Origin: Isurus oxyrinchus
Taxonomy: Eukaryota
Length of the DNA stretch: 64,000 nt
Reading direction: 5' to 3'
Assembly: GCA_026770705.1 (NCBI GenBank)
Contig: JANJGN010000009.1
Span: forward strand, 164,300,001-164,364,000
Shown here: in pieces, positions 23,544-61,713 of the stretch
Position numbering within the stretch: the first letter of the stretch is position 1
Layout of the letters: every line of letters begins with the position of its first letter
Translations under genes and position numbers: made by a program
The notes under the pieces: generated by a model
The model's input: only the letters and a program-made list of their open reading frames with translations
What the model was told of the DNA's origin: nothing
Databases searched by the model: none

Positions 23544-23583
23544 ATGGATTTGTCGTTTCATCTTTTCATGATCTCCTTCTCAG
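23544..23583 (+). CDS. Gene 1 exon 1 (signal peptide MDLSFHLFMISFS)
   Basis: aacATGG context; 40 nt ending TCAG|gtaaga. Same length, donor and 5' context as gene 2 exon 1. Confidence 0.8.
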
Positions 23584-26500
23584 GTAAGAAACAAACAATT
23601 TCTAGGAGCTTCTATGGTGAAATGAGAATTGTGTGCATTAGTGCAAGTTTTATGGAAACATTAATTAGTAGCAGATCTTTCGTCTAGAATATTTGCCTAA
23701 TTATAAGTTTGTTAATCCTCCCTATCCAATTTTCCTATAGGAAATTCAATACCCCCAGGCATAGGAACAGGAAAATCCACTGCAGCATTCCTATCAGCTG
23801 TGGCTCAATGGTGGAACAGTAGTTATGGTACCTGTGAAGGTTGTGGGTTCAAGTCCCAGTCCAGCGACTTGAGTATGTTGAACTAGAATAGCACTTCAGC
23901 TTAGTGATCAGGGCTCAGACATCCCATCTCCCCTATCAGGTGCATGTGAAAGATTTCATGGTGTTACCTTGATGTGTGATACAAAAGTAAATCATCTGGT
24001 CTTTCATTGTTATTTGTGGGATCTTGCTGCTCACACGTTGTTTGCCTCTTTAACTACTACAATGAGTATACTTGCACCAAGTTTGTTGGCTGTAAAGCAT
24101 TCTGATGTCATGAAAGATGCAAGACTTGATTTCTTTTTCCAATCATTTTAATGCACTTTAAACTATCCTTTTGTGTTTTACTTTAACATCTGTTTCAAAT
24201 AATTGAAGCCATTTTATGAATCCGTGCAGATTTATGTGTCAGCAATCTGCTGCTGAGAAAAGTCTCTCTATACTGTGACAGGAGGGTAAACACCTGTTCA
24301 TGTCATAATCTTTTTGATCATCTTTTTGCTTGCCACTGCTTCATGCACTGAACTATTATGTCCTTCAGCCTTATTGCACCAGAGCAAAAGAAACTAAATG
24401 TCAATTTTTAAAAAAGTAATAACAGCAATTAACATTTACAGGTCCCATGTACGCTCTTCCAAATGCAGAAGCGATGTTCGATATTCAGCAATGTTTGTGT
24501 CATATTATAGGAACAGTAGGAGGCCCCTTGAGCCAGTTCCAATATTAGCGAACACTTTGAATTTAAATGTGTGTATTGAGATTGGTAAACTTACTCTCCC
24601 AATTTGGTCATTCGAGTGATGTAGTTGAGGTGCTTACTGTGTCTTGCAAAGGAAGTACAGGAAGCATTCTGTATTGAAACTGTGCTCTGTATCGTGTCCT
24701 GGAGAAGGGTTATGTTTGACTTGAAACATTGGCCAGGGTTTTCCGGCCCAGCCGTGAGGGATAGGGCGAGCCAATCAAGTGCCCGTTGACTTCGATGGGA
24801 GATCCCGCCGGCGGGAGGGGCTGGGAAAATTCCGCCCATTAGCCTCGTTTCTCTCCCCGTAGATGCTGCGGACCTGCTGAGTCTTTCCAGCACTTTCTGT
24901 TTTCATTTCAATGAGATCGTGGCTGACCTATGACCTAACTTCATACGCCTGCTTTTGGCCTATTTCCGTGAATAGGTTTGGTTGATAAAAATCTATCAAA
25001 CTCAGACCTAAAATTAGTAATGACCAGGTATCAACTTCCATTGCGCAAGAGAGTTCCAAATCGTGTGTAGATGTACAAGAGGTGTTTCCTTCATTTCACT
25101 CTTGGAAGGGCAGACTCTAGTTTTGAAACTATCTCCCCTATAGACTGCCAACCATGGAAATAGCTGCTCTCTACCTACCCTATCTAATCCCCTTAACATC
25201 TTGAAAATTCCAGTAAAATCACCCCTTAACCTTCTAAATTCCAATGAATACAACCTCTCTGCGTGAATAATCTCCCCACTTAATCCAGTCCTTGGAATCC
25301 CTATTTACACAAGGGCAGCTGAATTTCAATCCAGCATGTTTTTTTGGTGCTCCTTTGCGAGACACGTTGGCCTGGATTTTCACTGAGTCAAGTTGACTGA
25401 GGAGCCCTTGGAAAAATGGCAGGCGGGTCCCGATTCCAGGATTCCCGACCCCACTCCCAGGCTGTGCGATTCTTGGGGGTGTTTTTAAAGGATGCGGGTT
25501 GCTTCCTGTCAGAAGCACGTGTCCTGGTCAGCTCCGTTGCGGAGGTAGTCATGTCCCGGTCCTCTGCAGTTTTCATGGAGCCGGGCCAGGTTTTTAAAGT
25601 GATTCACGGGCCTGTGAGTGGATTCCTGAACCATAGGGGAGAATGTTCCACACCTGCCCACCACTGCCATCTTCCGGACCCACCACAAGGCAACGGATTT
25701 CTGGCCGCGGCACTGCCTTGCCCATAGCTTGAGGTGATCTTTTAAAATGTAAGTTCAAGAGGTTCCCCTCATGGCTCCTACACCAAGTTATGCCCCCACT
25801 AACCCCCTCAGGGCCCTCTTGCCTCCTATCCCAAGCTCTGCCCTGAGGGGTTGGGTGGAAGGTGAGGGAACATAGGGGTGAGTCATGAACATGGGGTCAT
25901 GAGATGGCATTGATGGGACATAGAACCATAGAATCATAGAACCATAGAACACTAAAGCACAGAAAACAGGCCATTCAGCCCTTCTAGTATGTGCCGAAAT
26001 ATTATTCCAATTGTCCCATTGAACTGCACCCAGTCCATAACCCTCCAGACCTCTCCCATTCATGTATCTATCCAATTTATTTTCTGTGGAGTGTTTGGAG
26101 GATGAAGGAGATAAGAAAAGGGAGGGGGGGGGGGCAACGGAGGGGAGGGCCTTTGTGTATTTTTTCACTGGGACAAAGTCCCATGGCACCGAGGTAGGCC
26201 TTTTAAAAAGCCCCTCCCCTGCGGCTCCGAACCTTTTTCCAGGTCAGCTAACCCGACTCCAGCCAGCATCCACCTCCCAGCATTGAGGATCCTGCCTGGG
26301 CTGGGCACGTCCTCCTAAGACAGGCGGGCAGATCAGGAATATTTCCCCGACTCCCATTATCCGCCTCGAGGGTGAAAATCCAGGCGTTAATACGGAAATC
26401 CCTCAAACGCCATCATTAGGACCATCAAATTGGGAGAGTGAGTTTACAAGCCTTAATGGACATTTTGAAACTTCAAGTATTCAAGGGACACTTTATGCTG

Positions 26501-29500
26501 TTAAACTGTTGCACTGATTTATTTTTATTGTATTTTACAACGTGTGTGTTATAATTTCACACTGAACAGTTACGTACGCTGCATTAAATGGACCAGATGT
26601 TATCAATGCATTAGTCGGACAATCGATCCATGTCACATGTACACATGACAAATACTACAGCAATTATCGAAAGTACTGGTGCAAAGGCAACACCCAGGAA
26701 GCCTGTGCTATTCTCATGCAAACCCACAGCCTGAGTAAGACAAATTCTGATGGCAGAATCACCATTGCAGCTGATAATGAATCAGGGGAGTTTACAGTCA
26801 CAATGGAACACTTAACTCAGGATGATGAAGGCTTGTACTGGTGTGGAATCGAAAGGCCTTTCTGGGACCTGTTAAGCCCTGTGGAACTTAAAATCACTGA
26901 AGGTAGGATCTGGATGTTTCTGTTTATTTTGGGCATTTTCAGCTGCATAGTTTCGAGTTTATAACTTTTGCAGTATGATTTAGCATATGTTCTGCAACAT
27001 TTCCAAAGCTTTGTGGTGGTAAGTTAGAATCCTGTAAAGAGGATCATGAAAAATAACAAACTGGGTTGGATTTAACAGCCCCCAACTCGCCGACTAAAAC
27101 ATCGGGGGTTGGGGGGGGGGGGGGGGGGGGTGGGGGGGGCAGCCTGCCCAGCAGAAGGCAATTGATTGGCCACTAATAAACTAGAGGTGGGATTTCCACC
27201 CCTGAAGTTCCCCCTCAGAGAGCTGCTGGCCACAGGAGGAGGTCGCAACAGGTGAGAGTTTGGCAGTCTTGCAGGTTCCCGCAAGGGGGCTTGTGGTGGT
27301 GGTGGTGGGGGGGGGCGGATGCGAGGGTATGAGAGGCCACAGGCCATGGGAGGGTGGGGGACCTGTGGTGGTGGGGGAGTAAAACTTTGGGAGGACACTG
27401 TGATGGGCCCAGAGGGCCTGTTAATGAGGGATGTCCCTGCCCAACGCCAGGCCATGCGCTTGGTGTGAGCCTTTTCCCTGCCACTGGTTAAATCCCAGTG
27501 AGGGCAGGATGAGACCCTAAGTGGACATTAAATGCCCACTAAAGGGACTCAGTTGACCCACAGGCACTGACACTACCTCCACCATTGGTAAAATTGCAGT
27601 GGGGGCAGGAGTGGGGATTGGTGTAATTTGCCTTTAAGGGATAGCAGCATGACATCACTGCCTGTGATCAGAATGTAGCACAGCTCTGATATCTTCCAAG
27701 CTTTCTACCTTTGTATAAATATTCTCATCTGCCTGTTCTCAGTAAATGAACCAACAACGTTTTTACACAATCCCTTATGAGTGATTGGTGCCTATATCAT
27801 TATAACAACACAACAGTCAGGTAGGCAGCACCCATGCCACCCACTGCATCTAAAATGCCATCCCCAAATCAATATACAGGACAGCATTAAATTCAGACCA
27901 AAATATATAATTTTAGTACTAATTCTGCTCATGAAACTTTCCATTTTTTTTCATCACAAATTTGAAGAAATTTATCTCTGTTGACTTAGACTGATGTGTA
28001 ACATAATTTGGCAGTATAATTTAATAACAATTATTTATATAATTTCTAACAGGTCCCAAAGTACTTCTATCAATCTCCCCATCAGACAAGGAAATCCTAA
28101 GGTAAATGTCATGCCTATTTAAACTGGTCTATTCTGAACATTAATTCTGTCTCTACACAATAGTGATCACACTAAAGAGAGGGCACCGAGGAGGTTTATG
28201 AGCGTGTTGCTGGGACTGAAGAATATCACAGGCAGAAGTGGAACTAAGACTGGATTACATGACACACTTCCCTTCTAGTGATGTCCTGGTGCTATCTCTT
28301 AAAGGCATATTACAACAATTCCCACTCCTGCCCCCATTGCAATTTTACCAATGGTAGTGGTATGTCAGTGCCTGTGGGTCAACTAATTCCCTTTACTGGG
28401 CATTTAATGCCCACTTAGGGTCTCATCCTGCCCTCACTGGGATTTAACCAGTGGCAGGGAAGAGGCTCACACCAAGCGCATGGCCTGGCGTTGGGCAGGG
28501 ACATCCCTCATTAACAGACCCTCTGGACCCATCACAGTGTCCTCCCAAAGTTTTACTCCCCTGCCACCACAGGTTCCTCTCCCTCTCATACCTTCACATC
28601 CCGCACCCCCCCCCCCCCCACCCCCCCAACCCCCTTGAGGGAACCTTCATGAGGAAAGATTGGTTGGGCTGGGGTTGTTTCCTTTGAACAGAGGAGGTTG
28701 AGGGGACATTTAATTGTGAGGGGGCCAGATAGAGTGGATTTCCCTCAACAGAGAGGTCAAAAACTGGGGGCATAGATTTAAAGAAATTGGTATGAGGTTT
28801 AAAGGGGAGTTTAGGATAGGTTTTTCACCAGAAGATGGTGGGGCTATGGAGCTCACTGCTGGAAAGGGTGGTGGAGGCAGAGACCTTCAATGTATTTTTA
28901 AAAATGCTTGGATATGCACTTGAGTGCCTGAACTTACAGGGCTATGCACCAAGAGCTGGAAGGTGGAATTAGGCTGGAATGCTCCTTTTTTGTGGTAGGC
29001 ACAGACGTGCTGGGCCGAAAGGCCTCCTCCTGTTCCAATTTCCTATGGGCAGAATTTTCCAGCCTCCTCCCCCTCACTGGCAGGCGGTGGGGTGGGGGCA
29101 CAATGTGGCGGGAGCTAAAAGACTGGTTTCTCATCGATGCAAAATGGCAGCAGAAATGCCCCCTCCCGCCCATCATGGTGGGGTCACCATTCCCACCAGA
29201 GGTCAGCAAGAAGCCGTTTTGCATCCCATTAATGGGATACCGATGAAGACCCGACTGGAATTGTGCCCCCCCCCGCCTCGTCCAATTTTCCACAATGCCG
29301 GGCTAACGTGTCCTGGACAATCACTGCTCACCCGGAAGGAGAGGCCATGGGGCAGCGAGCAGACAGTGGACGATGGAGATCTCCAGTGACTGTGTACCCT
29401 GGAGCACCACATGCAGCCGTGGGTGGGTGGAGCGTCAATCACGTGTATCTTCTAGCCGCAGGATCTTCCCAGCAGTGGATCTTCTCACGACAGGTGTTCG

Positions 29501-32500: not shown

Positions 32501-34801
32501 CAAGAAGGCAGCTCACCACCACCTTCTCAAGGGGCAATTAGGGATGGGCAATAAATGCTGGCCCAGCCAGCGAAGCCCACATCCCCCGAATGAATAAAGA
32601 AAAAACAATCATCAAATTGAATTTGAAAGAATTTCCAGGGCTTTTTGTTTTCTTTTGTAGATTATGGCAGCCAGCATTTACTGCCCTTCCCTAACTGGCC
32701 TTAAACTGAGTGGCTCCCCAGGCCATTTCAGAGTCAACCACACTTGCTTTGAGTCTGGATTCAAATGTAGGCCAGGCCAGGTTAGCAGATTTCCTTCCCT
32801 AAAGGGACATTAGTGAGGATAATCAATGATAGCTTCATGGTCACCACCACTGAGACTAGCTTTCAATTGCAGATTTAATGAATTGAGTTTAAATTCCACC
32901 AGCTGCTATGGTGGGAATTTGAACCCATGTCCCCAGAAGATTAACCTGGGCCTCTGGATTACTAGACTAGTGACGTTACCACTATGCCAACATATTCCCT
33001 GAATTGCTGCCTCATTTTAGTTAAAGATCTAGTTCACAGTCTCTAATGAGGCTTTCCCCACTCTTCTGCCATAACTTTGACAGGAGACTGGCAAAATCCT
33101 GAATGAAACGGTACCAGCAACCATCCCAGTGGGAGATCGGCTGCAGAAATTCCAGGCACTAAATTCCCATGGATTGAAATTTCATATCATTCGTTCATTG
33201 CTTAGCCTGGTGGAGGTCCACCCAAGCCTGATACACCCTTGAGTCCTGCGGTTTATCAAATTTTGCAAGAAATATGTTAAAGAAAGTAATTTATCTTGAT
33301 TGGGAGGCAATTTTAATCCAATGAGTCTGTCAAACAACTCATGGGATTAGGTGCAATATTGGCTTTACAACCAGCTCCCTACAGGAATTTTAATGGCCAG
33401 CGTAAACACAGTGTTCTGCCCCATCCCATGTGTTTCTTTCCCACAGCGTGAGGCTAAGATTACCCCCTTGTCTTTTTGTTACCAGTAAGTATTGTGCTTA
33501 AAACCCACCTGCAGCAGCCCACTGTCATCTTTTGTTCACAGCGCCGGTTGCATATTTAAATCAAGACATAAAAATCCATTTTAGCGAGAACAAAAAGCAG
33601 AATCCCATAGATGCTGGAATTCAGAAACAAAATCAGGAAATTTTGGAAAAGACATTACTCATTTTAACAGTTCGAAACATAGAAAAAGGGACCATAAGGA
33701 GGCCATTCAGCCCAATATGTCTGTGCTTGCCAAAAAAAGAGCATTCCAGCCTGATCCCACCTTCCACCTCTTGGTCCATGGCCCTGTAAGTTAGAGCACT
33801 TCAAGTGCATATCTAAGCAGTTATTTTAAATACAGTGAGGGCTTCAGCCTCTATCACCCATTCAAGCAGTGAGTTCCATATCCACACTAGCCGTCCTCAA
33901 CTCCCTCCTAATCCTTCTACCAATCACTTTAAATCTATGCCCCCTGGTTTTTGACCTTTCTGCTGAGGGAAATAGATCAGTCAGCATCTGTGGAGAAAAC
34001 AGACAGGGTAACATTTCAATGATAAAAACAAAAAAACTGCGGATGCTGGAAATCCAAAACAAAAACAGAATTACCTGGAAAAACTCAGCAGGTCTGACAG
34101 CATCAGCGGAGAAGAAAAGAGTTGATGTTTCGAGTCCTCATGACCCTTTGACAATTCTGTCAAAGGGTCATGAGGACTCGAAATGTCAACTCTTTTCTTC
34201 TCCGCTGATGCTGCCAGACCTGCTGAGTTTTTCCAGGTAATTCTGTTTTTGTTTAGGGTAACATTTCAGTTCTGACGAAGAGACTATATCTGAAAGGTTC
34301 ATCTCAGCTGTTCTATCCAGCACTGCTGACTGACAATTTCCTCCTTTTCTAATCAAAGCAAGTATTTTTATAGCAGGGAGAGATCAGTAGAAGCTGACTC
34401 ACGATGCTCTGCTGCCGTTAGGTTACCACATCTATTGAGAAAAGCAAATTTCATCCCTCTTGGCACAGGTTAGAACTGGGACGTAACGCACCTTCCAACT
34501 CAATGCTTTGTCCTCACTAATTTAAATGGACGGACTATCACGGGTCAAAGTGTGCGCCGGACAGTAATTAGCCAGGTGCCCAGGAGCATGAAAGTAGATA
34601 GGTTCGGCCACAAGTGTAACTAAATAAATCACACATCTAAGTTAACTCTGTGGATTCAGAAAACTATCTTGATGAAACCATTTTGTCTCCTACCTACCTA
34701 GGCAAAATAAATATCTGTACTATTTTATATGGAGCATTTTACGTTGGGCATTCTTCATCATTCTCCTCATTTGGGCCATTTTTGTCAAACTGAAAATATA
34801 G
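23544..34801 (+). CDS. Gene 1: CD300/CMRF35/pIgR-like single IgV receptor; join(23544..23583,26570..26902,28053..28101,34702..34801), 173 aa
   Basis: All introns GT-AG with matching phases (1,1,2). The spliced product is open: MDLSFHLFMISFS-VTYAALNGP...VTC...KYWCKGNTQEAC...DEGLYWCG...LKITE-GPKVLLSISPSDKEIL-RQNKYLYYFIWSILRWAFFIILLIWAIFVKLKI*. It has a signal peptide, a V domain with the extra Cx7C pair, a stalk and a TM. Confidence 0.85.
23790..24125 (+). mobile_element. Degenerate Deu-domain SINE (gene 1 intron 1)
   Basis: tRNA-like head ggttgtgggttcaagtccca; same tail as the other copies. Confidence 0.55.
24731..24837. mobile_element. 107-bp Harbinger-type MITE
   Basis: Imperfect TIR ggccagggttttcc / ggaaaattccgccc; TSD ATT; sits in a Penelope hammerhead remnant. 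Confidence 0.75.
25369..26385. mobile_element. Harbinger-type MITE containing a CR1 tail insertion (~25919-26085)
   Basis: TIR gcctggattttcac / gtgaaaatccaggc; GTT on both flanks. Confidence 0.75.
26570..26902 (+). CDS. Gene 1 exon 2 (IgV domain, CD300/pIgR type)
   Basis: 333-nt phase-1/1 exon, aacag|...G|gtagg. Motifs: VTC, KYWC-x7-C, GRITI.D, FTVTM..L...DEGLYWCG. Confidence 0.93.
27273..28646. repeat. Inverted duplication: arms 27273-27668 and 28225-28646, flanking gene 1 exon 3
   Basis: Arms are reverse complements, shown by the near-identical spurious ORFs 27215..27484(-) and 28451..28687(+). Confidence 0.92.
28053..28101 (+). CDS. Gene 1 exon 3 (stalk GPKVLLSISPSDKEILR)
   Basis: ctaacag| and AG|gtaaat; 49 nt. 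Homologous to gene 2 exon 3 (PK...DKE.LR), including the downstream intron sequence. Confidence 0.85.
28165..29046 (+). mobile_element. CR1 3' fragment interrupted by the right arm of the inverted duplication
   Basis: RRFTRMLPGL-like sequence at ~28180-28220 resumes as EERL..LGLF at ~28650; tail runs to 29046. Confidence 0.7.
29047..32058 (-). mobile_element. Non-autonomous Harbinger element with decayed Myb/SANT gene
   Basis: TIR gggcagaattttcc / ggaaaattcctccc; TSD TAT. Minus-strand remnants resemble the Myb gene of the 48318-52750 element. Confidence 0.78.
34019..34254. mobile_element. Palindromic Penelope insertion (97-bp arms 34057-34153 / 34158-34254) with 14-bp TSD
   Basis: Near-perfect inverted arms with a 4-nt loop; agggtaacatttca at 34005-34018 and 34255-34268. 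Confidence 0.88.
34702..34801 (+). CDS. Gene 1 exon 4 (transmembrane, intramembrane Arg, stop)
   Basis: Pyrimidine tract plus tag| acceptor. In phase 2 it reads QNKYLYYFIWSILRWAFFIILLIWAIFVKLKI*. Confidence 0.85.
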
Positions 34802-34989
34802 GTGATTAAAAACTGGTAAGTTGTTGATTTGAATCATTTCTGTGCATTTAAGTTTAAGCACAACACATTTGGAGGGATTCCTTATAATCTGCTTATTATA
34901 TTTCAGAAAGGATAGCAGAACCATGACAATATATTTCTGAAGTAAACGTGCACTCATTTTGTCTTGTATTGAGATCATTTTTTGAGGGG

Positions 34990-36795
34990 ACTTTTTATTG
35001 ACATTGATGCTAAAAGGTTAGTTAAGGAAAAAGTGGGACCTATCAGAGATGAAGATGGAAACTTGTGTGTAGATGCAGAGGCTGTGGGAAGGGTTTTGAA
35101 TGAATATTTCGTCACCGTGTTTACAAAGGAAAGGGAGGATGTAGATATAGTAGTCCAGGAGGAACACTGCGAGATATTAGATGGGTTAGTCATAAAGAGA
35201 GAGGAAGTACTCGAAGGGCTGAAATGCTTGAAAGTTGATAAGTCACCAGGGCCAGATGGATTGTTTCCAAGGCTGCTGAAGGAAGTCAGGGAGGAGATAG
35301 CAGATGCTCTGAGGATGATTTTCCAATCTTCACTAGATACAGGGGAGGTACCGGAGGACTGGAGAAATGCAAACGTAGTTCCATTGTTTAAAAAGGGATC
35401 TAAGGACATGCCAAACAATTATAGGCCAGTTAGTCTTTGTGAGCAAATTAGTAGAATCAATCCTGAGAGATAGGATTATCTGTCATGTGGAAAGGCATGG
35501 ACTAGTCAGGGATGGTCAGCACGGATTTGTTAAAGGAAAGTCTTGCCTCACAAATTTGATTGAATTCTTTGAGGAAGTGACAAGAAGGGTTGATGAAGGT
35601 AGTGCAGTGGATGTTGTGTACATGGATTTTAGCAAGGCATTTGACAAAGTCCCACATGGCAGATTGGTCAGGAAAGTAAAAGCCCATGGGATTCAGGGTA
35701 ATGTGGCAAATTGGATAAAAGGTTGGCTTTGTAACAGGAAACAAAGGTAATGGTTGATGGATGCCCTTGCGAATAGAATGTTGACTCAAGTGGTGTTCCA
35801 CAGGGCGTGGTGTTGGGACCCTTGCTGTTTGTGTTATGTATTAATGATTTGGACATGAACGTGGAGGGCACGATTGGGAAATTTGCAGATGACACAAAGA
35901 TTGGCCAAGTAGTTGATAGTGTAGAGGATAGCCATAATCTCCAAACTTATATAGATGGGTTGGTGGAGTGGGCGGTAAAGTGGCAGATGGATTTTAACAT
36001 AGAGAAGTGTGAAGTCATACATTTAGGGAGATCAAACAGTTACAGGGATTACATAATAAATGGGAATATACTAAGAGGGGTAGATGAAGTGAGAGATCTT
36101 GGCGTACAAGTACACAGGTCCCTGACGGCAGCAGTTCAAGTAAACAAGGTTGTAAAGAAGGCATATGGAAAGCTCTCCTTCACTGGCAGAGGTATAGAAT
36201 ATAAAAGTAAGGATATAATGTTGGAATTGTATAAAACACTGGTGAGGCCACAACTGGAGTATTGTGTGCAGTTCTGGTCACCACATTACAGGAAGGACAT
36301 AATAGCTCTGGAGAGAGTGCAGAGGAGGTTTACAAGAATGTTGCCAGGGTTAGAAAAGTGGAGCTACGAGGAAAGATTGGATAGGTTGGGGTTATTTTCC
36401 TTAGAACAAAGAAGGCTGAGAGGTGATTTGATTGAGGTATACAAAATTATGAGGGGAATAGATAGAGTGGACAGGATCAAATTGTTTCTCTTGGTGGAGA
36501 ATTCTAGATTCAAGATAAGTGGCAGAAGCTGTAGGGGGACATGAAGAAGAACTTTTTTACGCAGAGGGTGGTGGGTGTCTGGAATTTGCTGCCCAAGTTG
36601 GTGCTAGAGGCAGAAGATTTAAACTCTTTTAAAAAGTACCTGGAACTGCACCTTAAGTGCTGTAAGCCGCAGGTCTATGGGCCGGGTGCTGGAAGGTGGG
36701 ATTAGAAAAGGCACCTGGGTGTCCTCGGGCTGGCATGGACAAGATGGGCTGAATGGCCTCCTCCTGTACTGTAACTTTTCTAATGTTCTATGGTT
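34990..36795 (+). mobile_element. 5'-truncated CR1 LINE (RT domain, frameshifted)
   Basis: KSPGPDG, DWRNANVVPLFKKG, NYRPVSL, QHGFVKGKSCLTNL, DFSKAFDKVPH, KFADDTK, RPQLEYCVQFWSP. Confidence 0.95.
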
Positions 36796-39700: not shown

Positions 39701-39799
39701 AAAGGCAAATGTCTAAGGGCGTCGGCGTTTGCGATTTGATTGCCAGGCCTATGTATGAAAGTGTATTCATACGCTGCCAGGATTAAGGCCCTATTATAT

Positions 39800-40398
39800 T
39801 TCTGTATCTTCTTTTTACGTGTCTTCTTCTTTCTAGCACAGACTTTAATCTCGGCCTCCTTTTTGACTTCACTGTTGGCCAGACTTCTCTCAGATGCCAG
39901 CTCAACTTGCCTGAGCTCAGTAGCTGAGTCCCCCAAACTTTCATTATCTGTCTGCTTCTTGGAAAATTCTGCAACTTTTGCTACCAAAGCCTCTCTGGCT
40001 CCATTTAGCTGATTCTTCACCTCTTCCGTCTTGTTTTTGTTTTTTTTTGCTGCCTCCTGGAAAATTGAGCATCGTTGTGTCTTCTCTGCCAACTCATCCT
40101 TCAGTTTGTTCAGGGAAGTGCTGAATTCTCTCTGTTCTCTTCATACTTTTCCAGTGGTATAAACTTTGACCTGAGGGAATCTTGTCGTGTGTGAAGGTCT
40201 TTCAGCAGGTTTTCTGATTCCCTGCGAAGGTTGTTCACTTCGTCGCGAACTCTGTCGTCAAGCAGGGTCCCTTCGAGTTCCTTCTGCTGTTCTTCCAGGT
40301 TTTGGCTTAAGACAGCCTGCGTTTCTTCAGGCTGTTGAGTCCTTACACACTCCTTTTCCAAAACAAGAACGCTTCCAGCTTCCTTTTGGAATCCCAGT
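39800..40398 (-). pseudogene. Captured host coiled-coil coding fragment (UACA/RAI14/ANKRD24-like) replacing Gypsy RT
   Basis: E/K-rich heptad peptide LKDLHTRQDSLRSKFIPLEKYEE..EFSTSLNKLKDELAEKTQRC..EAAKKNK (one frameshift) between protease and the RNase H C-terminus; no RT motifs. UACA resemblance is from memory. Confidence 0.6.
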
Positions 40399-45260: not shown

Positions 45261-45270
45261 TGTTTGCAGA

Positions 45271-47470: not shown

Positions 47471-47479
47471 ATTTTGTTT

Positions 47480-48317: not shown

Positions 48318-51300
48318 GGCTGGGATTTTCCGTGCCCGCCGGTGTCGAGTGTGTTGGGTGGCGTGAGCGGACAATTTGGCGAGGAGGCCAAAAATCAGTT
48401 TCAGGACGTCACGAAACCAGTTTGCGATCGTCTTCTCCGGCCGCCAATAGCTGGCTGCATTTGCCACCATCGGACCATCGGGAACCTCAGTGGAATACAT
48501 CAGCATGTCATTATAAGGCCAGCCCGCCGGAATCGGCCCCCTCCGCTGGACCGTCCGCCCACCAGCAATCGCACTGATGTGTTTCACAACAGCATATAAA
48601 AGGCGTGCACTTGGCAGGCTGCACTTTGAGGGGAACTCGGAGGTGAGTGGACAGTAATGTTGAGGAGTGCTCGCCCGGGTCCCCTGTAGGACGTCATGGT
48701 TGAGACGTGTTGAGAGGGGTGGTGGGCAAGGGCTGCCCTTGCAGTTGAAGGTAGCGCATAAGCACGTGCAGGGTGGGGATGGGTGAGAGAAGCAGCCCCA
48801 TATGAGTGAAACCTTGTATAAAGTGACCATTCCTCTGCAGCTGAGACACTTCAGGTTCAGCCACATTGATATGATTGGAGCGGGGCCTTTAGCTTATCTG
48901 CCCACTCAATCAGCACAGAGGCATCAAAGTGCCACTGAGTGCTCCAGAGTTCTCAGCCCCCGGGCACAGACTCCAAAGTCATGAGCATTTTCGTGGACTG
49001 CAGAGCATTTGGACGACTGGGCACAATGTACAATCTCCTCGCTAAAGCTGGACATGGAGCAGTCACTGCTGGAGGTGCTCACAGCCCCTTGTAATGTCAT
49101 CATCCCGGTTTGGGCCAGTCTCCCTCATGGTTCAAGCTAACAGGGCAGCCTTGCAGCGCAGGTTAGGAGAATGCCTGTGCCTGAGCTGAGAGCACAGCCT
49201 GCAGACCAATCGGCAAAGCTGCTGCCAAACGTTTGGTGGAACGGGGCGGAGGTGGGCGGGGTTTTGGGCAGCCATGCAGCGCACTAATCTCTGGCCATCC
49301 AAGTGCTGGCCAGCACTCTCCGGGATGCGCTAAGGAGCCTTCAGACTGAACCAAGTCAGGTTCTGAGTACACCCATGCTAAGCCGCAAGTCTCACTCTCA
49401 TCCTGCAGGAGGTGTACATCAGGATCACGGAGTCTGGTGACCTAGCTGTACACCTGGTGGCTTACAGAGAGCGAAGACAATGGAGAAGAGAACGACTGAT
49501 GCGCCTAACTGCCCAGCGGGAGAGGTAGCACCCTCTGGAAGAATGGGCAGCTAGAGAGCCACAGCGAGCTGTCGCTGGTCAGTGCCGAGCTAGACCGAGG
49601 CTCTACCGGCACCGCCTCTCATTCCTGCAGGTGACTGAGAACCAGTGTCGCTGAAGACTGCGCATGTCCAGGGAACAGGGTGATCACATCTGCCACCTGC
49701 TGCAGGATTTGGTGTCCCGGGGATATGGAGGGCACCCACTGCCAGTGGCTGTGAAAGCGACAGCGGCGCTCAATTTCTACGCCAGTGGTTCCTTTCAGTG
49801 ATCCACAGGTCACCTCTGGGGCACATCACAAGCCTCCAACCACAATTACACCCATGAGGTCACAGATGCCATCCTTGCGAGGTCACACAACTTTGAGCAT
49901 TTTGCCCATGGCCAGGGCAGCCAGGATACAAGAGCAATTGGATTTGCCCAGATTTTGGGTTTCCCACGGGTGCAGGGTGCCATCGACTGCTCTCACGTGG
50001 TGCTCAGATCTCCATCACAACAGACAGTCAACTATATAAACCGCAAGGGCTTTCATTCTCTGAATGCGGAATTGGTGTGCGACCACCACTAATGCATCCG
50101 GCAGGTCAGTTGGTCACAGATCCCTGACGTCTTCCAGAGTCCACAGGAGCTGCAGGGTTGGCTCCTCGGGGACAAGGGCCACCCACAGAGGCCGTGGCTG
50201 TTGACACCCGTGTGGTGGCCTCAGACTTCAGCAGAGTGACGGTATAATGAGGCTCATGCTGCAACTCACAACTTGGTGGAGCAGACCATCGGGATGCTGA
50301 AAATGAGGTTCCGGTGCCTGGACTGGTCTGGTGGAGCCCTGCAGTATAGTTCACAAAGGGTGTCACACATCGTCATCGTCCACTGTGCCCTTTACAACCT
50401 GGCGCTGCAACGGGAAGAAGAGCTGGCTGAGGAGGAGATGGAGGGAGCTGAAGGTCTCCTCCAATGAGGAGGATGTCAACGGGGATAAGGGTGAGGAGGC
50501 CCTCAGAGGGGACAATGATGGAGATGAGGCCCTCGCAATGGCCAGGCAAGGCAGGTGCGCTAGGGAGGCCCTCATGGCTGCTAGATTTGTGGCGGTTGAT
50601 GATGACATGCAGTGAGGGCACTCCATACATCTTCACATAGCCTCTGAGAATGTCCTGTCTGGCCGAGGGCAGCTCACGTGTGGTCTGTCAGCAGGGTCAA
50701 ATCATAGAGACGAAGCCATGAAACATTAGCAGCATTTGATCCTTTGTCAGCCTTCAGCACCTGAACCCTTCAGGAGCAAAGCATCACTGGTCACAGATGC
50801 TGAAGAGATGGGGGCCAACCCCATCTTAAGGGTGCTTAGAGCACACATGGAGAATCTCAGAACTCTGTGGGGCCTGCCCACAACATTCTGGCAGCAATGT
50901 CAAGCACCGCCAAGGTGCAGGCATCAGTAACGTACCCGGGGAGTGTGAGGCCGGACAATCACTGTGGTCTGAAGGATACACAGAGCACAGGGAAGAGGCC
51001 CTGGACAGAGACACTTGCCTTTATCTTGTGCAGAAAGTGTTCACATCTGGGTGACATGAACATTGCTCATCAGAACAAGGAGCTACAGGCAGGGAGACAT
51101 TCTTGGGAGTTTATTGACAATAGTGAACTGTGTGTACAAGTAATGAACATCCGTGCCCAGGCTGAATAACTACATTTTCTTAACTTTCCTAAACCTGCCA
51201 CTGCATCTTGGTGCTCCCTGGACATCCACAGCAGAGCCGGAGGCAGCCTGCTGACTGCTATACCCTGTCTGTGATGACTTTGGTGGGCATCTTCTGGAGG

Positions 51301-53625: not shown

Positions 53626-54149
53626 GTGCATTTTGCTTTCTAAAAACTCCCATCAAGGCTTTCAGAGTACTGAAGTTGTGCTTCTAATTTTGAATAAATT
53701 ATCCCAAGGAGGAAAATGGCGAGAAGCGAATTAAACGCATCACAAAGCACATTTTATGGAATACACTGTACAGAATCTAAATGGTTTAATAGAGATTGCA
53801 AAAAGCTGTACAATTTTAACACTACCCACAACAATCATTCTGTCACTAACAATTAAACAGTTGATCCAATGCTTCAAACAACACTAAGAAATAAAACAAT
53901 TAGGCTTTTATATAGCACCAGAGTGTTGTACCATGAATGCATTGGTACTTATTTATTCAAACTAGACATGTTGTAAGGTCTGAGGGTGTCACAACTGAAA
54001 ACTGTCCTTTCTATTCTCAGCAATAGTCGTGGTCATGATCTCACGAGCGTTAAAGGGAAGGAAATGACTGGTTAGATGCTGCAGTACAGAAGCAGGGCCA
54101 CTGAAGTAAAGATCTGTGCGTGGAACATTAGTTGTAAAACATTAAAACA

Positions 54150-54189
54150 ATGGGTTTTACCCTTCTCCTGTCCGTTGCTTTCCTATCAG
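54150..54189 (+). CDS. Gene 2 exon 1 (signal peptide MGFTLLLSVAFLS)
   Basis: acaATGG; 40 nt; TCAG|gtaaga. Confidence 0.82.
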
Positions 54190-57100
54190 GTAAGAAAATA
54201 TTGGTCTCCTTCGGATTTTGAAAGTAATAGAAATGTGTAGTTACGTCAGTCTGACCAGAAATGTAATCTGATGAAAACCTTGTGACATTGTTCACCTGCT
54301 AAGAAATATCTTCTGCTTGACAAGCCACAATTATTATTCAAGATCAACATTGATTGTCTTTTGAGAAAAGGATAAATATATGTCTCCTATTTCACACAAC
54401 AATTAATGCAACGGAACCTCATTTTAACAAACTCAAGCCTCCTGCTTTAATGATCATTTTCTTTAGTCTTGATTGGTGTGAAACTAGAAATCCAAACCTG
54501 GAAATGGTGAATTTTCTGATCAGACAAGTTAACTTTCTGCTCATGTTGAATTTGTAACAACTGGACTTTACACTTAGTGCTGATCAAGCCTCTTTAAATG
54601 TACTGGCTTGTTCAATTGATCATTCTCATTATTTATAGCATTTTAGATGAGAAATATCAACTAATTTTGAGTTAGAGCTTTAATGCAGAGGTTTGTTTAA
54701 CATCAACATATCAGCAAAATGTGGAAGAATATTAAGTGAAAATGAGATATTATATTGTAATCATTTGGAATCTTTTGAATGTTTCACTTCCTGTAACTCC
54801 CACAAAGGCCAAAACAAAGAAGGAGGAAGTTTTTAAAAATTTTTGTTATATGTTTTAATCACTGTTACTAATGTTGAGATTTTAATCACCAACATTTGAA
54901 TAAACTTTCCAACGCAAAGTGGCAACAAAATCTGACCTGGTGAGAAATTCCTGTCTTCGGGGTTTCAAATAGACATGTCACCATATATATAAACAGAGCA
55001 ATGCAGCTTTATGCTGGTGTTGACTAAAAGGGGAATTTCAGCCACTTGTGTTACATAGGCAGAATCTTGCAACTAATCAGTGCAACAGTTGCAAGCTCCT
55101 GACTTCTTAGTTATAGTTCTGACTGATTTATTTAAATGACTCTTTTTACGTAATGAAATATTTGCACGATTGATAACAAGTAATGTTTGTTTATATTTTG
55201 CACTATCGGGATATGCTTAACAAACAAGAGGACTCCATTTTGGCCCCATTCCAATCTTCTATATGTCTGTGGAGCGGTTCCCCCATGTCCCAACCCCCAC
55301 CCTTTCCAGCGCGGTATTCCAAGACCTCCACCAGAAATGGAATTCTTACTTACGTAAAAGAAACCACGACCCACCCCCACTCCCTCGCCGCACTGGGTGT
55401 CTTGCACTGCCATTTTCCTCTGCCCAGCTATATAATCCAGCGAAGCTCCCTCCATCAGAAAATATGAATTGCAGCAATGGCCTTTAAAGAATGGCAGACA
55501 CATACATTGTGTCATCATTCTTTCTCCATAACCCTGGTTCTCCTACCTTCACCTAAATGTAAGCGGGACTCATTCCAATGTCCTGAAAGACCCAGAGCAT
55601 TGCTGACCCACTTTAAATAAAGTTGGGACAGGGGTCACAACATCGAGGCAAAATACATAGATGAGAAGTTCTCAAGAAGTCAGGATAGAAGGAGACTTCA
55701 ATAACTTGAAAATCAATTCAAAAATAATGAATAAATAATTTTTGCTTTATAGGAAAGGTGAAGTGTTCTTTCTATGGATTGTCCATTTAGGTTTTTATAA
55801 TTATTGAGAAACTAAGATACAGAACTGAGGTCTACATCACCACAGAAAAAAAAACAAACCAAAACCATTCCACAGACTTCACCCATGTGCGTTGTAAAGA
55901 TGACAAAGGATGTAGTGAGCTTCAGGTGTGGTCAATACACCTCCTTTCAATGCCAACAGCAGCACCCTCTCCCAAGCTAACTTGCCCAGCACTGAGACAT
56001 TAATCACTCAAAACCAGCTCCAGTGGGCGGGAAATGCCATTCGTATGCCCAACACCAACCTCCTGAAGCAACTGTTCCACTCAGAACTTGGTCACAGCAG
56101 GAAGCTCCCAAGGCCGATAGCGGAAAGACTTTAGGGAGTCTTCAAAATACCCCTGAAGAGGTCAAACACCTCTGCTGGCTCATGGGAAACCCTGGCTTGT
56201 GACCAACCAAAATGGAGAAGGTTTGTTCAAGAAGGCACCGAACACGTTCAAGAGATTTGGTCAAGGATGTGAAGAGGCGAAGTCAAGGCATCAGAAGGAG
56301 CACACAAACCTCCAAACAATACATCTACCCAACCTTTGAAGCAGAACCTACTCTGCATGTGGCAGCATCTGCAGATCTCGCATTGGACTTATCAGCCATC
56401 TCAGAACCCATCAAACTGGAGTGGAAGCAAGTCATCCTCAATCCTGAGGGACTGCCTAAGGGGGGGAGAGATGATACACCGCTCTCTGAAAACCCCTCAG
56501 ATTGCACTTTGGTGTAACCCACAGTAGCCTGTGATGGCTAAGTTCACAGCCATTATTACAGTGGGTTGCATCAGTGCCTGGAACAGCAGCAACTAACTGA
56601 GAAGGTCTGATTCCAACATGGATATAGATGTTATAATTAACCACACAAACAGCCTCACTTACTGTTTGTTGAACCCAGTAAGGGGAAATCTGAGAATGAT
56701 TGAGAAGGAACAAACTGTTCTGCAAAACACCACATCTAACTCCTATAATTTAAATTATGTTTCAGATCACATCTCACAAAATCTTCCCAGGTATACCTCC
56801 CAACCAAAACTTTCATAAATGTACCACTTATTCGCTCTCTCATTTATTCCCACTCCATCTGCCCCAGGATTGGGAGTGGTTTAGAATTCAGCAAAGGAGG
56901 ACCAAGAGACTGATTAAGAGGGGAAAAATAGAGTATGAAAATGAACTTGCAAAGAACATAAAAGCGGACTATAAAAGCTTCAATATGTATGTAAAACGAA
57001 AAAGATTAGTGAAGACAAATGTAGGTTCCTTGCAGTCCATATCTGGAGAATTTATAATAGAGAACAAGGAAATGGCAGAACAATGAAGCAACTACTTTAG

Positions 57101-60100
57101 TCCTGTCTTCAAAGAGGAACATAAATAATTTCCAAGAAATACTAGGGAACCAAGGGTCTAGTGAGAAGGAGGAATTGAAGGAAATTAGTATTACTAAAAC
57201 AATAACGCTGGAGAAATTAATGGGACTGAAAGCCAATAAATCTCCAGGACCCAATAATCCACATCCCAGGGTACTAGAGGAGGTGGCCATGGATATAGTG
57301 GATGTGTTGGTTGTCATCTTCCAAAATTCTGTAGATTCTGGAACAGTCCCGATAGATTGGAGGATAACAATTGCAACCCCACTATTTAAAAGGGACGGAG
57401 GGAGAAAACAGGGAATTACAGACCAGTTAGCGTAACATCAGTTGTAGGAAAAATGCTAGAGTCTATTATAAAGGATGTGATAACAGGACACTTACAAAAT
57501 ATCAACAGGATTAGACAAAGTCAACACAGATTTATAAAAGGGAAATCATGTTTGACAAACCTACAGGAGTTTTTTGAGGACATAGCTAGCAGAATAGGTA
57601 AGGGAGAACCAATGGATGTGGTGTATTTGGATTTTCAGGAAGCTTTTGATAAAGTTCCACATAAGAGGTTAGTGTGTAAAATTAAATCACATGGGATTGT
57701 GGGTAATATATTGGCATGGATTGAGAATTGGTTAGCAGACAGGAAACGGAGAGTAGGAATAAATGGGTCTTTTTTGGTGTGGCAGGTGGTGACAAGTGGG
57801 GTGCTGCATGGATCAGTGCTTGGGCCCCAGCTATTCACAATATATATCAATGATTTGGATGAGGGAAGCAAATATAATATTTCCAAGTTTGCTGACAACA
57901 CAAAACTTGATGGGAATGTGACCGATGAGGGTGTTAAGAGGCTTCAAGATGATTTAGACAGATTGAGTGAGTGGGTACATACATGGCAGATGCAGTATAA
58001 CATGGATAAGTGTGAAGTCATCCACTTATGTAGGAGAAACAGAATGGCAGAGGAGTATTTAAATGGTGATAGATTGGGAAATGTTGATGTACAAAGGGAC
58101 CTGGGTGTCCTTGTACACCAACCACTGAAAGCAAGCACGTAGTTTCAGCAAGCAGTTAAAAAGGCAAATGATATGTTAGCCTTCATTGTGAGAAGAATAA
58201 GGGAGCAGGGATGTCTTACTGCAGCTGTGTAGGTTCTTGGTGAGACCACACCTAGAGTATTGTGTGCAGTTTTGGTCTCCTTACCTAAGAAGGGATATAC
58301 TTGCCATAGAGGGAGTGCAGCAAAGGTTCACTAGACTGGTTCTTGGGGTGGCAGGATTGTCGTATGAGGAGAGATTGGGCCAACTAGGCCTATATTCACT
58401 GGAATTTAGAAGGATGAGAGGAGATCTCATTGAAACATATAAAATTCTGTCAGGGATGGACTGACTGGACGCAGGGATGATAATTCCTCTGGCGGGGGCG
58501 GGGGGGGGGTGGTGTCTAGAACAAGGGGTCACAATCTCAGAATATTAGGTAGACCATTTAGGACTGAGATGAGGAGAAACCTCTTCACTCAAAGGGTGGT
58601 GAACCTATGAAATTCTCTAGCACAGAGGCTGGTCACAGAATATAATTAAGAAGGAAATAGATAGATTTCTGGACTCTAAAGTCATCAAGAGGTAAGAGGA
58701 GAGCACAGGAGTATGGCGTTGAGATGGAGGATCAGCCATGATCATATTGAATGGCGAAGCAGGCTCAAAGGGCTGAGTGGCCTACTCCTGCTCCTATTTT
58801 CTATGTTTCCAAGTTTCTTCCCCTGCAGGGCCAACTTAATCATTTTAGATCTGTCTCTACTCCCTCCCTCCCACCAAATTCTGTTTCTGTTATGCCAGTT
58901 CCATTGCCTTCTTCTTCACAGCAAAATGGCTTCAGTCCTATTGTTCTACATGTCTGAAGTCTTATGTCCTGCTGCAACATATCTTCTCATTATCTCTTAG
59001 TCTGATAAAGTACCACTTAACAGGCTTGTCAGCAAAGTGAAAGTCCATCGAATAAAAGGGACAGCAGCAGCATGGGTACGAAGTTGGTTGAGTGACAGGG
59101 AAGACAGCAGCACTGAATGGCTGTTTTACAAATTGGAGGAAGGTACATAAGGGATTCCACAGTGGTCAGTGTTTTTACACTACTTTCCTTGATTTATGCA
59201 ATGCAGACTTGGGTGTGACAGGCACAATTTCAAAATTTGCAAATGACACGAACCTTGGAAGTGTTGTGAACTGTGAAGAGGATAGTGATAGACTTCAGTT
59301 AGAGAGTATGATGGAATGGGCAAACAATTGGCAAATGCAATTTAATGCAGAAGAGTGGGAAGTGATTCATTTTGATAGGGAAAACAAGGAGAGGCAATAT
59401 AAAATAAAGTATACAATTCTGAAGATGTTGCAGGAGAAGAGGACCTGGGGGTAAATGTGTACAAATCATTGACTGTGGCAGGTAAGGTTGAGAAAGTGAT
59501 TATAAGGCCTTCATAATTACAGGCATAGTGTGCAAAAGCAAAAGAGTTATGCTGAACCTTAAGAAAACATTGGTTCAGCCTCAACTCATGTCCAATTCTG
59601 GGCATCAGGATTTAGAAAGGATGTGAAGGCATTTAAGAGAGTGCACAAAACATTTACAGGGTTAAGTGACCTCAGTTACGTGGATAAATTGGAGAAGCTA
59701 GGTCTGTTCTCCTTTAAAAGATTGAGCAGAGGTTAGAGAGGGGTGCTCAAAATTATGAGGGGTCTAGACAGAGCACATATAGAGAAACTGTACCCTTTGG
59801 CGCAAGAGTTAATGAACGCAAAAGGTCATGGTGTAAAACTGTTTTATGCAGCAAGTGGTGAGGATCTAGAAAGCATTAGTTGACAGCGTATTAGAGGCTT
59901 TCAAAAGGAAACTGGATAATTATCTAAAAAAAAAAAGAATTGCAGGACTATGAGGTGAGGGTGGAGCAGTGGGACTAGTTGAGCTGCAGTGAGCCAGCAC
60001 AGTCTGGGCCGAATGGCCTCCTTCTGTGTTGTAATCATGCAACAACATAATATGAAGCTTCTAAAGCCTCACACCGAAAGTCTAACGTTATGGTACAGTG

Positions 60101-61713
60101 GTGCTAAAGATTTAGTGCATAAGGCAGATCGCCTCACTCTAATTTGGGGCTATTAGTTTTGTTGCCCCCCCCCCCCCACCTCCAGTGCTTTTCAAAATTA
60201 AACTGGAGAAACAGCAGGATCAAGGAAATCAAATGGAGCCTCATTTTAGCACTCGCGCTAAGAGTCGATCATGTACCTAACAATACGTTCAATGCCCTTG
60301 CAGCATTCCTCTAACACAAGAACTCTCACTATCATGAACTTTCCACTTTTAGCCCCAGGGGCAAACTCTAATCTCTTGCTACTTTCCTCATACCTTGCCC
60401 CATTCTCGAAAAATATGGGTTCACTGCTCTACCATCTAGCCTCTCACTCCTACTGAAATTTATGCCACCTGTTTCGGTCTCATTCATATATGTTGCATCA
60501 GTTGCATAGGTTTTGGGCATATTTTCAACTCTGGACCCATTACAACTTCAATTGGTCCAGAATGCGATTTTGGATCCCAGGACAAACTCTACCCCCAGAT
60601 GTTCCAACGAGGCCCCTACCCACAGCTTCTTTGAAATCCATGTGCAATTTGGAATCTCCCAGTCGCCCTCTCCCCACCAATGTCTGATCCAAATCCCCTT
60701 CGCCAACCCAGTACATTTATGTTTCTTGCTGTGCCTTTCCCACTAAACATGTGAAAGAAACAGAACTTGGTAAACTGCTAACAAACACGTAGATACGAGG
60801 GGCAATACTGAAGCCAGAGGGTGTTAGTGAACAAAAAACAGACAACTACTGGCAAAACAATGAGGGAGCCAGTCAGAGAGAATAAAGGAGTGAAAAGCCA
60901 ACAAAGAGCCAAAGGTCCCAGGAAAAACAAATGAGTGGAACGCTTAAGAGAGAAAGGAACAAATTTTAATTTTTTTATGCTTCTGTGAAATGTTTAACTT
61001 TAAAGTTTATTATATTTTCACACTTACAGTCGCGCACGCTTCAATACACGGGCCAAGCTCAAAAGATGCCACAGTGGGAGAATCATTCGAACTCACATGC
61101 AATTTCGACACATCTTATCACGATTATCAGAAGTATTGGTGCAGAGGCTACTACCAGAGGAGCTGTAATGTTTTAGTACAAACCCAAGGCTCTGAAAGGA
61201 AAAGCCAAGACGGCAGAATAAAAGTGAGAGCTGATAATGTAAAAGGAGAACTTAGGGTATATATGGAGCAAATAACAGAAAACGATAAGGGGTGGTACTG
61301 GTGTGGAATAGCAAGAAACCACAATCTGGATCTACTAAGTCCCATAAAACTTAACGTTGTTCAAGGTAGGACACAAATATATGTTTATTTGCGTGTATAT
61401 ATTTAATGATATATTTATATTATACAACAGGTTTATATAATTTGATGCAGACCTTGGTACATATTTTCAAAATCTCCAAGATCCTGATTTCTCAGTCAGG
61501 TGTTAAAATTTTGTTAAAAAGCTAGGACAATATTGTAAAACTACGTGCTATGTTTTGATCATTCTACGAAATGCAGAATTTCAATCAGCAATCCCTGCAA
61601 ATGTATCTTGATAATGAATCTGTAACATGAGGCTAGTAAATTATCAAATAATATTTTTGTACATCATTTTGAACAGCTCCAAAGTCACTTACTATGGACA
61701 AGGAAAGACTAAG
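54150..61713 (+). CDS. Gene 2: CD300/CMRF35/pIgR-like paralogue, partial; join(54150..54189,61030..61365,61677..61713); TM exon presumably beyond window
   Basis: Same exon phases and near-identical exon sizes as gene 1. Product: MGFTLLLSVAFLS-VAHASIHGP...LTC...KYWCRGYYQRSC...DKGWYWCG...LLSPIKLNVVQ-APKSLTMDKERLR. Confidence 0.85.
55930..56460 (+). mobile_element. RTE-clade LINE 3' fragment
   Basis: LSQANLPS.E.LI...QLQWAG..IRM....L.KQLF.SEL, the typical RTE C-terminal region. Confidence 0.75.
56865..58810 (+). mobile_element. 5'-truncated CR1 LINE (gene 2 intron 1)
   Basis: ORF 57453..58142 carries RT motifs; RPHLEYCVQFWSP; tail ttctatgtttc. Confidence 0.95.
59000..60040 (+). mobile_element. 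Older CR1 LINE fragment
   Basis: ISKFANDT, WQMQFNAE.WEVIHF. Confidence 0.8.
61030..61365 (+). CDS. Gene 2 exon 2 (IgV domain)
   Basis: 336-nt phase-1/1 exon, ttacag|...G|gtagg. KYWC-x7-C and DKGWYWCG; lies inside ORF 60990..61406. Confidence 0.93.
61677..61713 (+). CDS. Gene 2 exon 3 (stalk APKSLTMDKERLR)
   Basis: gaacag| and AG|gtaaat; homologous to gene 1 exon 3. Confidence 0.82.

Follow-up and report, generated by a model that had tools for sequence, protein, structure and literature searches.

Two receptor genes lie on the forward strand of the 64,000-nt stretch of shark DNA that was analysed (the window), their leaders 30.6 kb apart and each with a 40-nt leader, a V-set exon and a short stalk (Table 1), just as an earlier note on this DNA had described. 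Both V exons match the Pfam V-set family (E = 4e-16 for gene 1 and 1e-14 for gene 2), every intron of the two genes within the window is GT-AG, and no V exon beyond these two was found in the window. The window is also rich in repeats, 43% of it being multi-copy.

Table 1. Exons and associated features of gene 1 and gene 2. L001 coordinates lie beyond the window end.
Feature	Position	Length	Strand	Evidence or remark
Gene 1 leader exon, ATG, phase 1	23544..23583	40 nt	+	Orthologues P0001-P0004 share this N-terminus
Gene 1 V-set exon with Cx7C; CD300lf Arg42 aligned with Glu	26570..26902		+	Pfam V-set; V-stalk joint in 4/4 runs
Gene 1 stalk exon	28053..28101	49 nt	+	Splice joints seen on either side
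Gene 1 TM exon with Arg in the helix (WxxLRW); stop 34799-34801	34702..34815		+	Stalk-TM joint in 3/4 runs
Gene 2 leader exon, ATG, phase 1	54150..54189	40 nt	+	13/13 residues identical to P0006
Gene 2 V-set exon with Cx7C; CD300lf positions 41-42 aligned with Gln-Arg	61030..61365		+	Pfam V-set, alignment
Gene 2 stalk exon	61677..61713	37 nt	+	Comparison with orthologue
Gene 2 intron leaving the window end	61714..64000		+	Last three exons beyond the window, in L001
Gene 2 TM exon, uncharged	L001:1522-1622
Gene 2 first tail exon	L001:5253-5308
Gene 2 last exon: ITIM VTYATV, ITSM TEYSTV, stop	L001:7504-7695

Gene 1 encodes a product of 173 residues with an Arg within the membrane helix and no cytoplasmic tail; its TM exon is followed at 34816 by a donor leading toward an unmapped 3′ UTR exon. 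Orthologues at 59-91% in other sharks have the same tailless end, and those in RefSeq/GenBank from Cetorhinus, Mustelus, Heterodontus and Chiloscyllium (P0001-P0004) are annotated as CMRF35-like. No sequencing run is recorded as RNA, and spliced joints served as transcript evidence instead. Those of gene 1, from two samples whose RNA status was guessed, link V exon and stalk in all four runs and continue into the TM exon in three of them (the leader's joint does not appear among them), supplying the spliced transcripts on which the earlier note had staked its case; two further runs, X12 and X13, contained almost none of the searched words. The repeat-rich surroundings, together with stops in two of the 40 V exons of the wider cluster (see below), might suggest that the two genes are chance open reading frames or dead genes, but their frames are intact, full-length orthologues exist and gene 1 has spliced contigs. 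We regard this explanation as negligible, and for gene 1 it is already refuted.

The coordinates of the earlier note ended before the TM and tail exons of gene 2. The TM exon that it had proposed to seek downstream was found past the window end, followed by the exons of the tail. The complete model, which is founded on orthology, gives a product of 253 residues with a neutral membrane helix and with an ITIM and an ITSM in the tail, and 247 of the 253 are identical in P0006 from Carcharodon. This record and P0007 (Rhincodon) are annotated as CMRF35-like 1 and P0183 (Scyliorhinus) as a hypothetical protein; the gene 2 orthologues in other sharks stand at 64-94% and again have the same ends. All the shark records named here agree with our genes in length class, leader, V domain, TM and tail. 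The CMRF35-like names are automatic, and the records are silent on pairing, pocket and site.

Both V-set domains have an additional disulfide within the CC′ loop, of the Cx6-9C type that characterizes the CD300/TREM/pIgR superfamily and in the Cx7C form that had been noticed before. As a signature of the CD300/pIgR family, however, Cx7C is less telling than was proposed, since it is also present in NKp44, and Cx6-7C in most TREMs, according to part of a preprint (bioRxiv 2022.04.21.489081), and only 6 of the 41 V exons examined here possess it. The organization into a single V, stalk and TM segment with one exon per module is that of the CD300 family, as is the combination of an ITIM tail in one gene with a tailless, charged TM helix in the other. 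In mammals, CD300LF is inhibitory while CD300LB and CD300E are activating. The charged residue is Arg in gene 1, whereas the two tetrapod activating CD300s compared use Lys.

Mammalian CD300 is also the best match in sequence and in fold. The best single-domain PDB match is CD300lf/CD300f for gene 1 and gene 2 alike (66.5 and 68.4 bits, respectively), against 53.3 and 44.8 bits for pIgR D1 and, for gene 1, 50.0 bits for NKp44 and 34.5 bits for TREM2; a CD300-type profile outscores a profile of pIgR D1-D4 by 22 and 30 bits. The predicted structure of gene 1 (pLDDT 84.8) aligns with CD300lf at Z = 16.9 and an rmsd of 1.8 over 107 aligned residues, and with TREM-1 and the best TCR at Z = 15.3 and 15.0, the Z gaps among V domains amounting to only 1.5-2. 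Mammalian pIgR was not among the top 50 folds matched by this model, a result that does not imply its exclusion. Of the eight pocket residues named for mouse CD300lf in part of PMC6166816, gene 2 keeps seven (an insert of one residue displaces its Asp) and gene 1 six, judging from sequence. Taken together, sequence, modelled fold and pocket residues favour a CD300-like function for both genes.

V-domain trees, in which the reference set consisted of 11 domains from five proteins, none of them a TREM, leave the deep branches without settled order. Tetrapod CD300-type domains group among themselves (100/99), and a clade joining them with the shark pair was not recovered in the trees, nor was it rejected by the AU test (p-AU 0.36). 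A sister relationship of gene 1 and gene 2 to pIgR D1 was rejected (AU test, p-AU 0.033), and the D1-type BC loop, two residues longer, is absent from both. These results bear on whether the two genes might be pIgR/Fc-alpha-mu-R-type receptors binding or transporting shark IgM. With pIgR and the Fc-alpha-mu and Fc-mu receptors they share a V-domain superfamily and, in this genome, one chromosome-scale linkage group; pIgR comes first in the PDB list by summed score, and J chain is present in sharks, according to part of PMC10801876. Per-domain scores nevertheless favour CD300, each gene has a single V domain, gene 1 is tailless and the site is not that of IL10 and SARG, so that, with D1 sisterhood rejected, we hold such a role to be very improbable. 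The comparisons instead suggest that gene 1 and gene 2 are co-descendants of the CD300/TREM/pIgR superfamily, and we claim one-to-one orthology to no mammalian gene.

The two genes are among 40 V exons across 1.34 Mb of their contig, C9, which bears out the idea that V receptors of the CD300/pIgR superfamily form a multigene cluster here. One-V and two-V genes of both activating and inhibitory types are present, the ITIM-bearing paralogues that were to be looked for among them, and the on/off pattern repeats along the cluster. Its description as lineage-specific suits an upstream array of 32 V exons, whose units are 91-99% identical, but not gene 1 and gene 2, which each have separate orthologues across three to four shark orders. 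Skates have modular domain immune-type receptors (MDIR), reportedly described by Cannon et al. in 2006. Part of PMC3031540 presents MDIR as a cartilaginous-fish multigene family, activating and inhibitory, that resembles CD300, TREM and pIgR, and the shark cluster, compared by description only, is similarly multigene, activating/inhibitory and variable in domain number; no record named as an MDIR appeared in the sequence searches.

GNAI3 and another G-alpha gene border the cluster on one side, an AHCYL gene on the other. Synteny, which the earlier note had wished to see examined, places the cluster away from the PIGR site and probably from the Tweety-marked CD300 site as well, and the genomic neighbours differ from those of mammalian CD300. 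None of 21 Tweety matches falls on C9, all lying on other contigs (one marker, in a stricter search); as we take TTYH2 to mark the mammalian CD300 site, the cluster is probably not at its equivalent. Human PIGR, FCAMR and FCMR lie between IL10-family genes and C1orf116/YOD1, and that IL10/SARG site occupies C9:147.8-148.8 Mb, some 15 Mb away from the cluster. The TREM/NKp44 genes, for their part, we assume to lie between NFYA and FOXP4, with MDFI a further neighbour. The presence on C9 of NFYA (161.2 Mb) and of a FOXP-MDFI pair (152.8-153.1 Mb), along with TREM-1 among the top folds for gene 1, could indicate that what sharks have here corresponds to the TREM/NKp44 cluster and that gene 1 and gene 2 are TREM-like in function; TREMs and NKp44 likewise have a single V, the CC′ disulfide and either a charged TM or an ITIM tail. 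The cluster is, however, outside the NFYA-FOXP/MDFI interval, NFYA being 1.9 Mb off and the immediate flanks being others, and TREM2 scores far below CD300lf against gene 1 (34.5 vs 66.5 bits). We consider a TREM identity improbable.

Gene 1 and gene 2 form a clade with support of 100/99, or 95/96 under a mixture model; in a cluster-only tree their join has less than 80% support. Phylogenetically, they are sister paralogues from one duplication. Their non-coding 60-nt splice flanks have the conservation claimed for them, all six comparisons beating shuffles (0 to 8 in 1000 as high, with shuffles that do not keep the splice consensus). The V domains are 45% identical, and the claim that their loops had strongly diverged was not upheld: loops are 48% identical (29/60) and strands 41% (21/51), so divergence is not concentrated in the loops. 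Position 42 (CD300lf numbering) is Arg in all five gene 2 sequences and Glu in all five of gene 1.

Our preferred reading, with a probability of roughly 0.7, is that the two genes, which encode single-V type I membrane receptors, work as a pair, one activating and one inhibitory, with which shark immune cells sense lipids in the way CD300 does. Gene 1 might signal via an ITAM adaptor, most likely of the FcR-gamma/zeta type, at about even odds. FcR-gamma-like and CD3-zeta-like TM exons were found in the shark genome; a complex prediction for the gene 1 TM with an FcR-gamma-like TM dimer scored 0.05, and the DAP10 family search gave a single weak match containing a stop; neither outcome speaks for or against an adaptor. 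By analogy with established ITIM biology, the gene 2 tail very probably recruits SHP-1/2-type phosphatases. That each receptor binds lipids by their head groups, a Ca2+ sitting in the cleft formed by the CC′ and FG loops, may be put at one chance in two, and since the phosphate-orienting position is a conserved Arg in gene 2 and Glu in gene 1, a different head-group preference is predicted.

The same swap, with a V identity that is low for a ligand-sharing pair, favours different ligands and so counts against this reading. Gene 1 and gene 2 could be old paralogues whose ligands and cells are unrelated, a pair by ancestry and position only. Besides the fixed pocket difference, their separate conservation across shark orders fits such a history, as does the existence of closer on/off pairs among the other cluster genes (the V exons at C9:164.428 and 164.446 Mb reach 76%, and the upstream array contains V exons that are nearly identical). 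Against it, they are each other's closest paralogues, adjacent, and arranged activating then inhibitory as in the next pair of the cluster, and we think it rather unlikely.

The relevance to pIgR origin that had been attributed to this locus is weakened for gene 1 and gene 2 by the rejected D1 sisterhood, the lack of the longer D1 BC loop and a location other than the PIGR site. Another gene on the same contig does occupy that site. This lone gene, at C9:148.59 Mb and about 16 Mb away, has one V, a Lys in its helix and a short tail. The gene order is PFKFB-YOD1-SARG ... V-IL20-like-IL20-like-IL10-kinase, which puts it, with IL20/IL10 on one side and SARG/YOD1 on the other, where PIGR/FCAMR/FCMR are found in human; searches of C9:148.47-148.88, 147.76-147.84 and 147.87-147.97 Mb revealed no further V exons. 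Its V domain has a pIgR-type profile and fold, and AU tests did not achieve a placement (p = 0.37 with D1, 0.26 with all pIgR domains, 0.17 with CD300). One search identified an orthologue of this V, and another, for longer proteins, none among 95 candidates. The gene was at first read as a TMIGD3 orthologue because ATP5PB precedes it, and that order, compared with the human one (PMC9394163 Table 1), speaks for this competing identification. Among published titles and abstract openings none was found on the lone gene or the site of the cluster, a weak result as the key pIgR-origin and MDIR papers were not covered.

The lone gene is a likelier pIgR relative than gene 1 or gene 2. Tentatively, and at slightly less than even odds, we propose that all of the detectable shark CD300/TREM/pIgR superfamily is on one chromosome, with the lone gene as the PIGR/FCAMR/FCMR pro-orthologue and the GNAI3-AHCYL cluster as a CD300-side sister expansion. 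As a pro-orthologue, the lone gene would be an activating receptor not yet carrying the Ig-binding BC loop, and pIgR, Fc-alpha-mu-R and Fc-mu-R would have grown from its lineage.

Gene 1 and gene 2 already carry annotations and belong to a paired-receptor family that skates are known to have. Now that an inhibitory receptor of sharks is seen to keep most of the CD300lf pocket, and its activating sister to show a fixed exchange of charge there, the proposal that CD300 receptors sensed lipids ancestrally becomes directly testable. Mapping has set the cluster apart from the mammalian pIgR site and probably from that of CD300, and has brought to light one gene at the PIGR position which, although outside the window, is the more interesting lead. 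Parts of PMC4016189 and PMC13337447 report cartilaginous fish to be without PIGR homologues, and a syntenic pro-orthologue, if true, would therefore give the origin of the antibody-transport receptor a concrete start.

Both genes proved to lie where the earlier note had placed them, with leaders of 40 nt, introns that are all GT-AG and the exons listed in the table. The conservation of splice-flanking sequence described there also held, the non-coding flanks being homologous in six of six regions (the observed score was reached by 0-8 of 1000 shuffles), but the supposed concentration of V-domain divergence in the loops did not, since identity is 48% in loops versus 41% in strands. Gene 1 is completed by a transmembrane (TM) exon at 34702, giving a 173-aa protein with an Arg inside the helix and a stop directly after it. 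Its transcripts are indeed spliced: contigs of sequencing runs from two samples, presumed to be RNA, contain the V-stalk joint in 4/4 runs and the stalk-TM joint in 3/4, at the predicted GT-AG sites. Four of six candidates are gene 1 orthologues (91% in Cetorhinus, 71% in Mustelus, 65% in Heterodontus, 59% in Chiloscyllium), three with the same C-terminal helix and the remaining one a shorter isoform. These identities point to a lamniform shark as the likely source of the genome. In isoform X2 of Cetorhinus (P0001) the stalk is left out and the TM exon (window 34702-34800) is translated in a different frame, a predicted soluble form not seen among the gene 1 splice joints shown. The TM exon of gene 2, sought downstream, was found past the window end along with two tail exons; the predicted 253-aa model is identical to its Carcharodon orthologue (P0006) at 247 positions. 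A Mustelus record (P0005, 577 aa, 'pIgR-like') combines the orthologue of gene 2 with the two-V gene that comes next and is likely an annotation fusion. Outside the pair the window is mostly repeats, with a single N run (20379-20534).

Features of the pair, the receptor cluster and related loci (L, other stretches of the same genome; C9, the contig of the window)
Feature	Location	Strand	Description
V exons, genes 1 and 2	window	+	333 and 336 nt; phase 1; Pfam V-set; Cx7C in both
Stalk exons, genes 1 and 2	window	+	49 and 37 nt
Gene 2 TM exon	L001:1522-1622		predicted; neutral
Gene 2 short tail exon	L001:5253-5308		predicted
Gene 2 last exon	L001:7504-7695		predicted; ITIM and ITSM motifs
Second pair, activating member	L007:4210-4539		in-frame stop in V exon
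Two-V ITIM gene	L011:4140-8113 (C9:164.468-164.481 Mb)		
Lone single-V, Lys-TM receptor gene	C9:148589594-148599090 (L023, L024, L124)	+ (V)	
FcR-gamma-like TM exon	L122:1489-1578 (also L123)		two copies, other contigs (C1723, C1648)
Proline-rich open frame	L127:5267-7621		785 codons
Mobile-element sequences	window 34973-36541, 57061-58139, 38400-41600, 49800-50100		decayed LINE-type reverse-transcriptase copies; minus-strand integrase-bearing retroelement; DDE transposase fragment

The best per-domain PDB match of both genes is CD300lf, also the top match of the predicted fold of gene 1 (Z 16.9). Genes 1 and 2 are sisters in trees of 73 and 41 domains, a relationship not resolved in a third; tetrapod CD300-type domains form a separate clade, and deeper nodes lack resolution in the first two trees. 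References, which include no TREM or MDIR, were collected with the lone V gene as search seed, group labels were assigned by hand from record names and sequence, and 16 of 89 domains were dropped from the 73-domain tree (15 near-duplicates or partials and the orthologue of the lone V gene). An AU test rejects the pair as sister to pIgR D1 (p = 0.033); grouping with CD300 is not rejected (p = 0.36). The pair is not pIgR. It is genuine and well supported, and its kind is already known: the skate MDIR are described as a multigene activating and inhibitory family resembling CD300, TREM and pIgR (PMC3031540).

Mouse CD300lf binds phosphocholine and Ca2+ via Tyr34, Cys36, Gln41, Arg42, Cys44, Trp89, Asp98 and Met100 (PMC6166816). 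With positions counted from the cysteines, gene 2 keeps seven of these eight, the exception being Met100; gene 1 also lacks Met100 and has Glu for Arg42, the others being kept. Position 42 is invariant in 5/5 sequences of each gene. These residues suggest that both receptors would sense lipid head groups, with differing preferences. By analogy, gene 1 may signal through an ITAM adaptor and gene 2 probably recruits phosphatases, the two arms of established paired-receptor biology. FcR-gamma-like and CD3-zeta-like TM exons exist in the same genome; the former scores 41.7 bits with FcR-gamma versus 35.2 with CD3-zeta, and FcR-gamma has been reported absent in sharks (PMC4016189). The pair is predicted to work like CD300, a likeness claimed for its working, not for CD300 descent or site.

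A V-domain search of the genome (150 of 235 candidates scored) gave at least 40 matches, of which 39 fall within C9:163.13-164.47 Mb and the other lies at 148.59 Mb; a second query gave 35, on C9 only and in the same places. One further V exon found in the sequence of the region brings the cluster to 40, two with stops. Upstream of the pair, C9:163.13-164.27 Mb carries 32 V exons that belong to a single subfamily (21 distinct rows in the tree of the cluster, support 96/98); many lie in units of about 35 kb that are 91-99% identical, and eight have identical protein sequence. This array is mostly activating, with 17 Arg-TM exons and at least five inhibitory-type TM or tail exons, seen towards its ends; within C9:163.40-164.10 Mb only the DNA around V exons was examined. 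A rough, uncorrected pairwise count over 17 distinct exons, the pairs being non-independent, gave pN/pS 1.84. The array reflects either recent amplification or, in part, an effect of assembly. Downstream lie two two-V genes, one of them among the ITIM-bearing paralogues sought, and a second on/off pair, in which the activating member is likely a pseudogene. The second domain of the two-V ITIM gene groups (99/91) with a chimaera protein annotated polymeric immunoglobulin receptor, a name that is likely a misnomer because its helix is the activating WxxLRW. Of 192 proteins compared, 13 carry that helix, with occurrences in chimaera, rays and sterlet; it is therefore old.

The cluster is flanked on one side by a Gi-alpha gene that has GNAI3 as its best match (91.5 bits versus at most 88.9 for GNAI1) and stands tail-to-tail with a second G-alpha gene that we take to be transducin-type, and on the other by an AHCYL gene for which AHCYL1 and AHCYL2 are not told apart (61.0 and 60.6 bits). 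The human counterparts are neighbours at 1p13.3, and Table 1 of PMC9394163 lists no such receptor between them. Tweety genes, searched for in the genome, matched on other contigs, not C9. NFYA, FOXP-MDFI, SARG and IL10, which we take as markers of TREM and PIGR sites, are also on C9; in chicken, PIGR maps to chromosome 26 (PMC4016189).

The lone V gene lacks the B-strand cysteine, as does its orthologue (93% identical, 187 aa, Lys helix, short tail), which is named CMRF35-like in the annotation of two sharks. Splicing of the lone gene has thin support, two joints that each occur in a single contig. Before it come 6PF2K (-), OTU1/YOD1 (+), SARG (+) and then 0.7 Mb including a kinase exon, ATP5PB and a WDR77-like gene; after it come two IL20-like exons (-; E 0.012 for the one tested), IL10 (+) and a kinase (-), presumably MAPKAPK2. 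We take this order and its strands to match the human PIGR interval. Upstream of the WDR77-like gene, the proline-rich open frame has no match in Pfam and presumably resembles C6orf132. For the lone V, the pIgR D1-D4 profile beats that of CD300 by 21 bits, and its predicted model (pLDDT 94.5) is closer to pIgR D1 (Z 18.6, rmsd 1.3, 105 aligned) than to CD300lf (17.1). Trees did not place it, and against kinship with pIgR stand the missing D1 BC loop, a CD300-like helix and its abutting ATP5PB, two genes from TMIGD3 in human (PMC9394163). The interest of the pair rests on the predicted pocket and on this lead at the PIGR slot.
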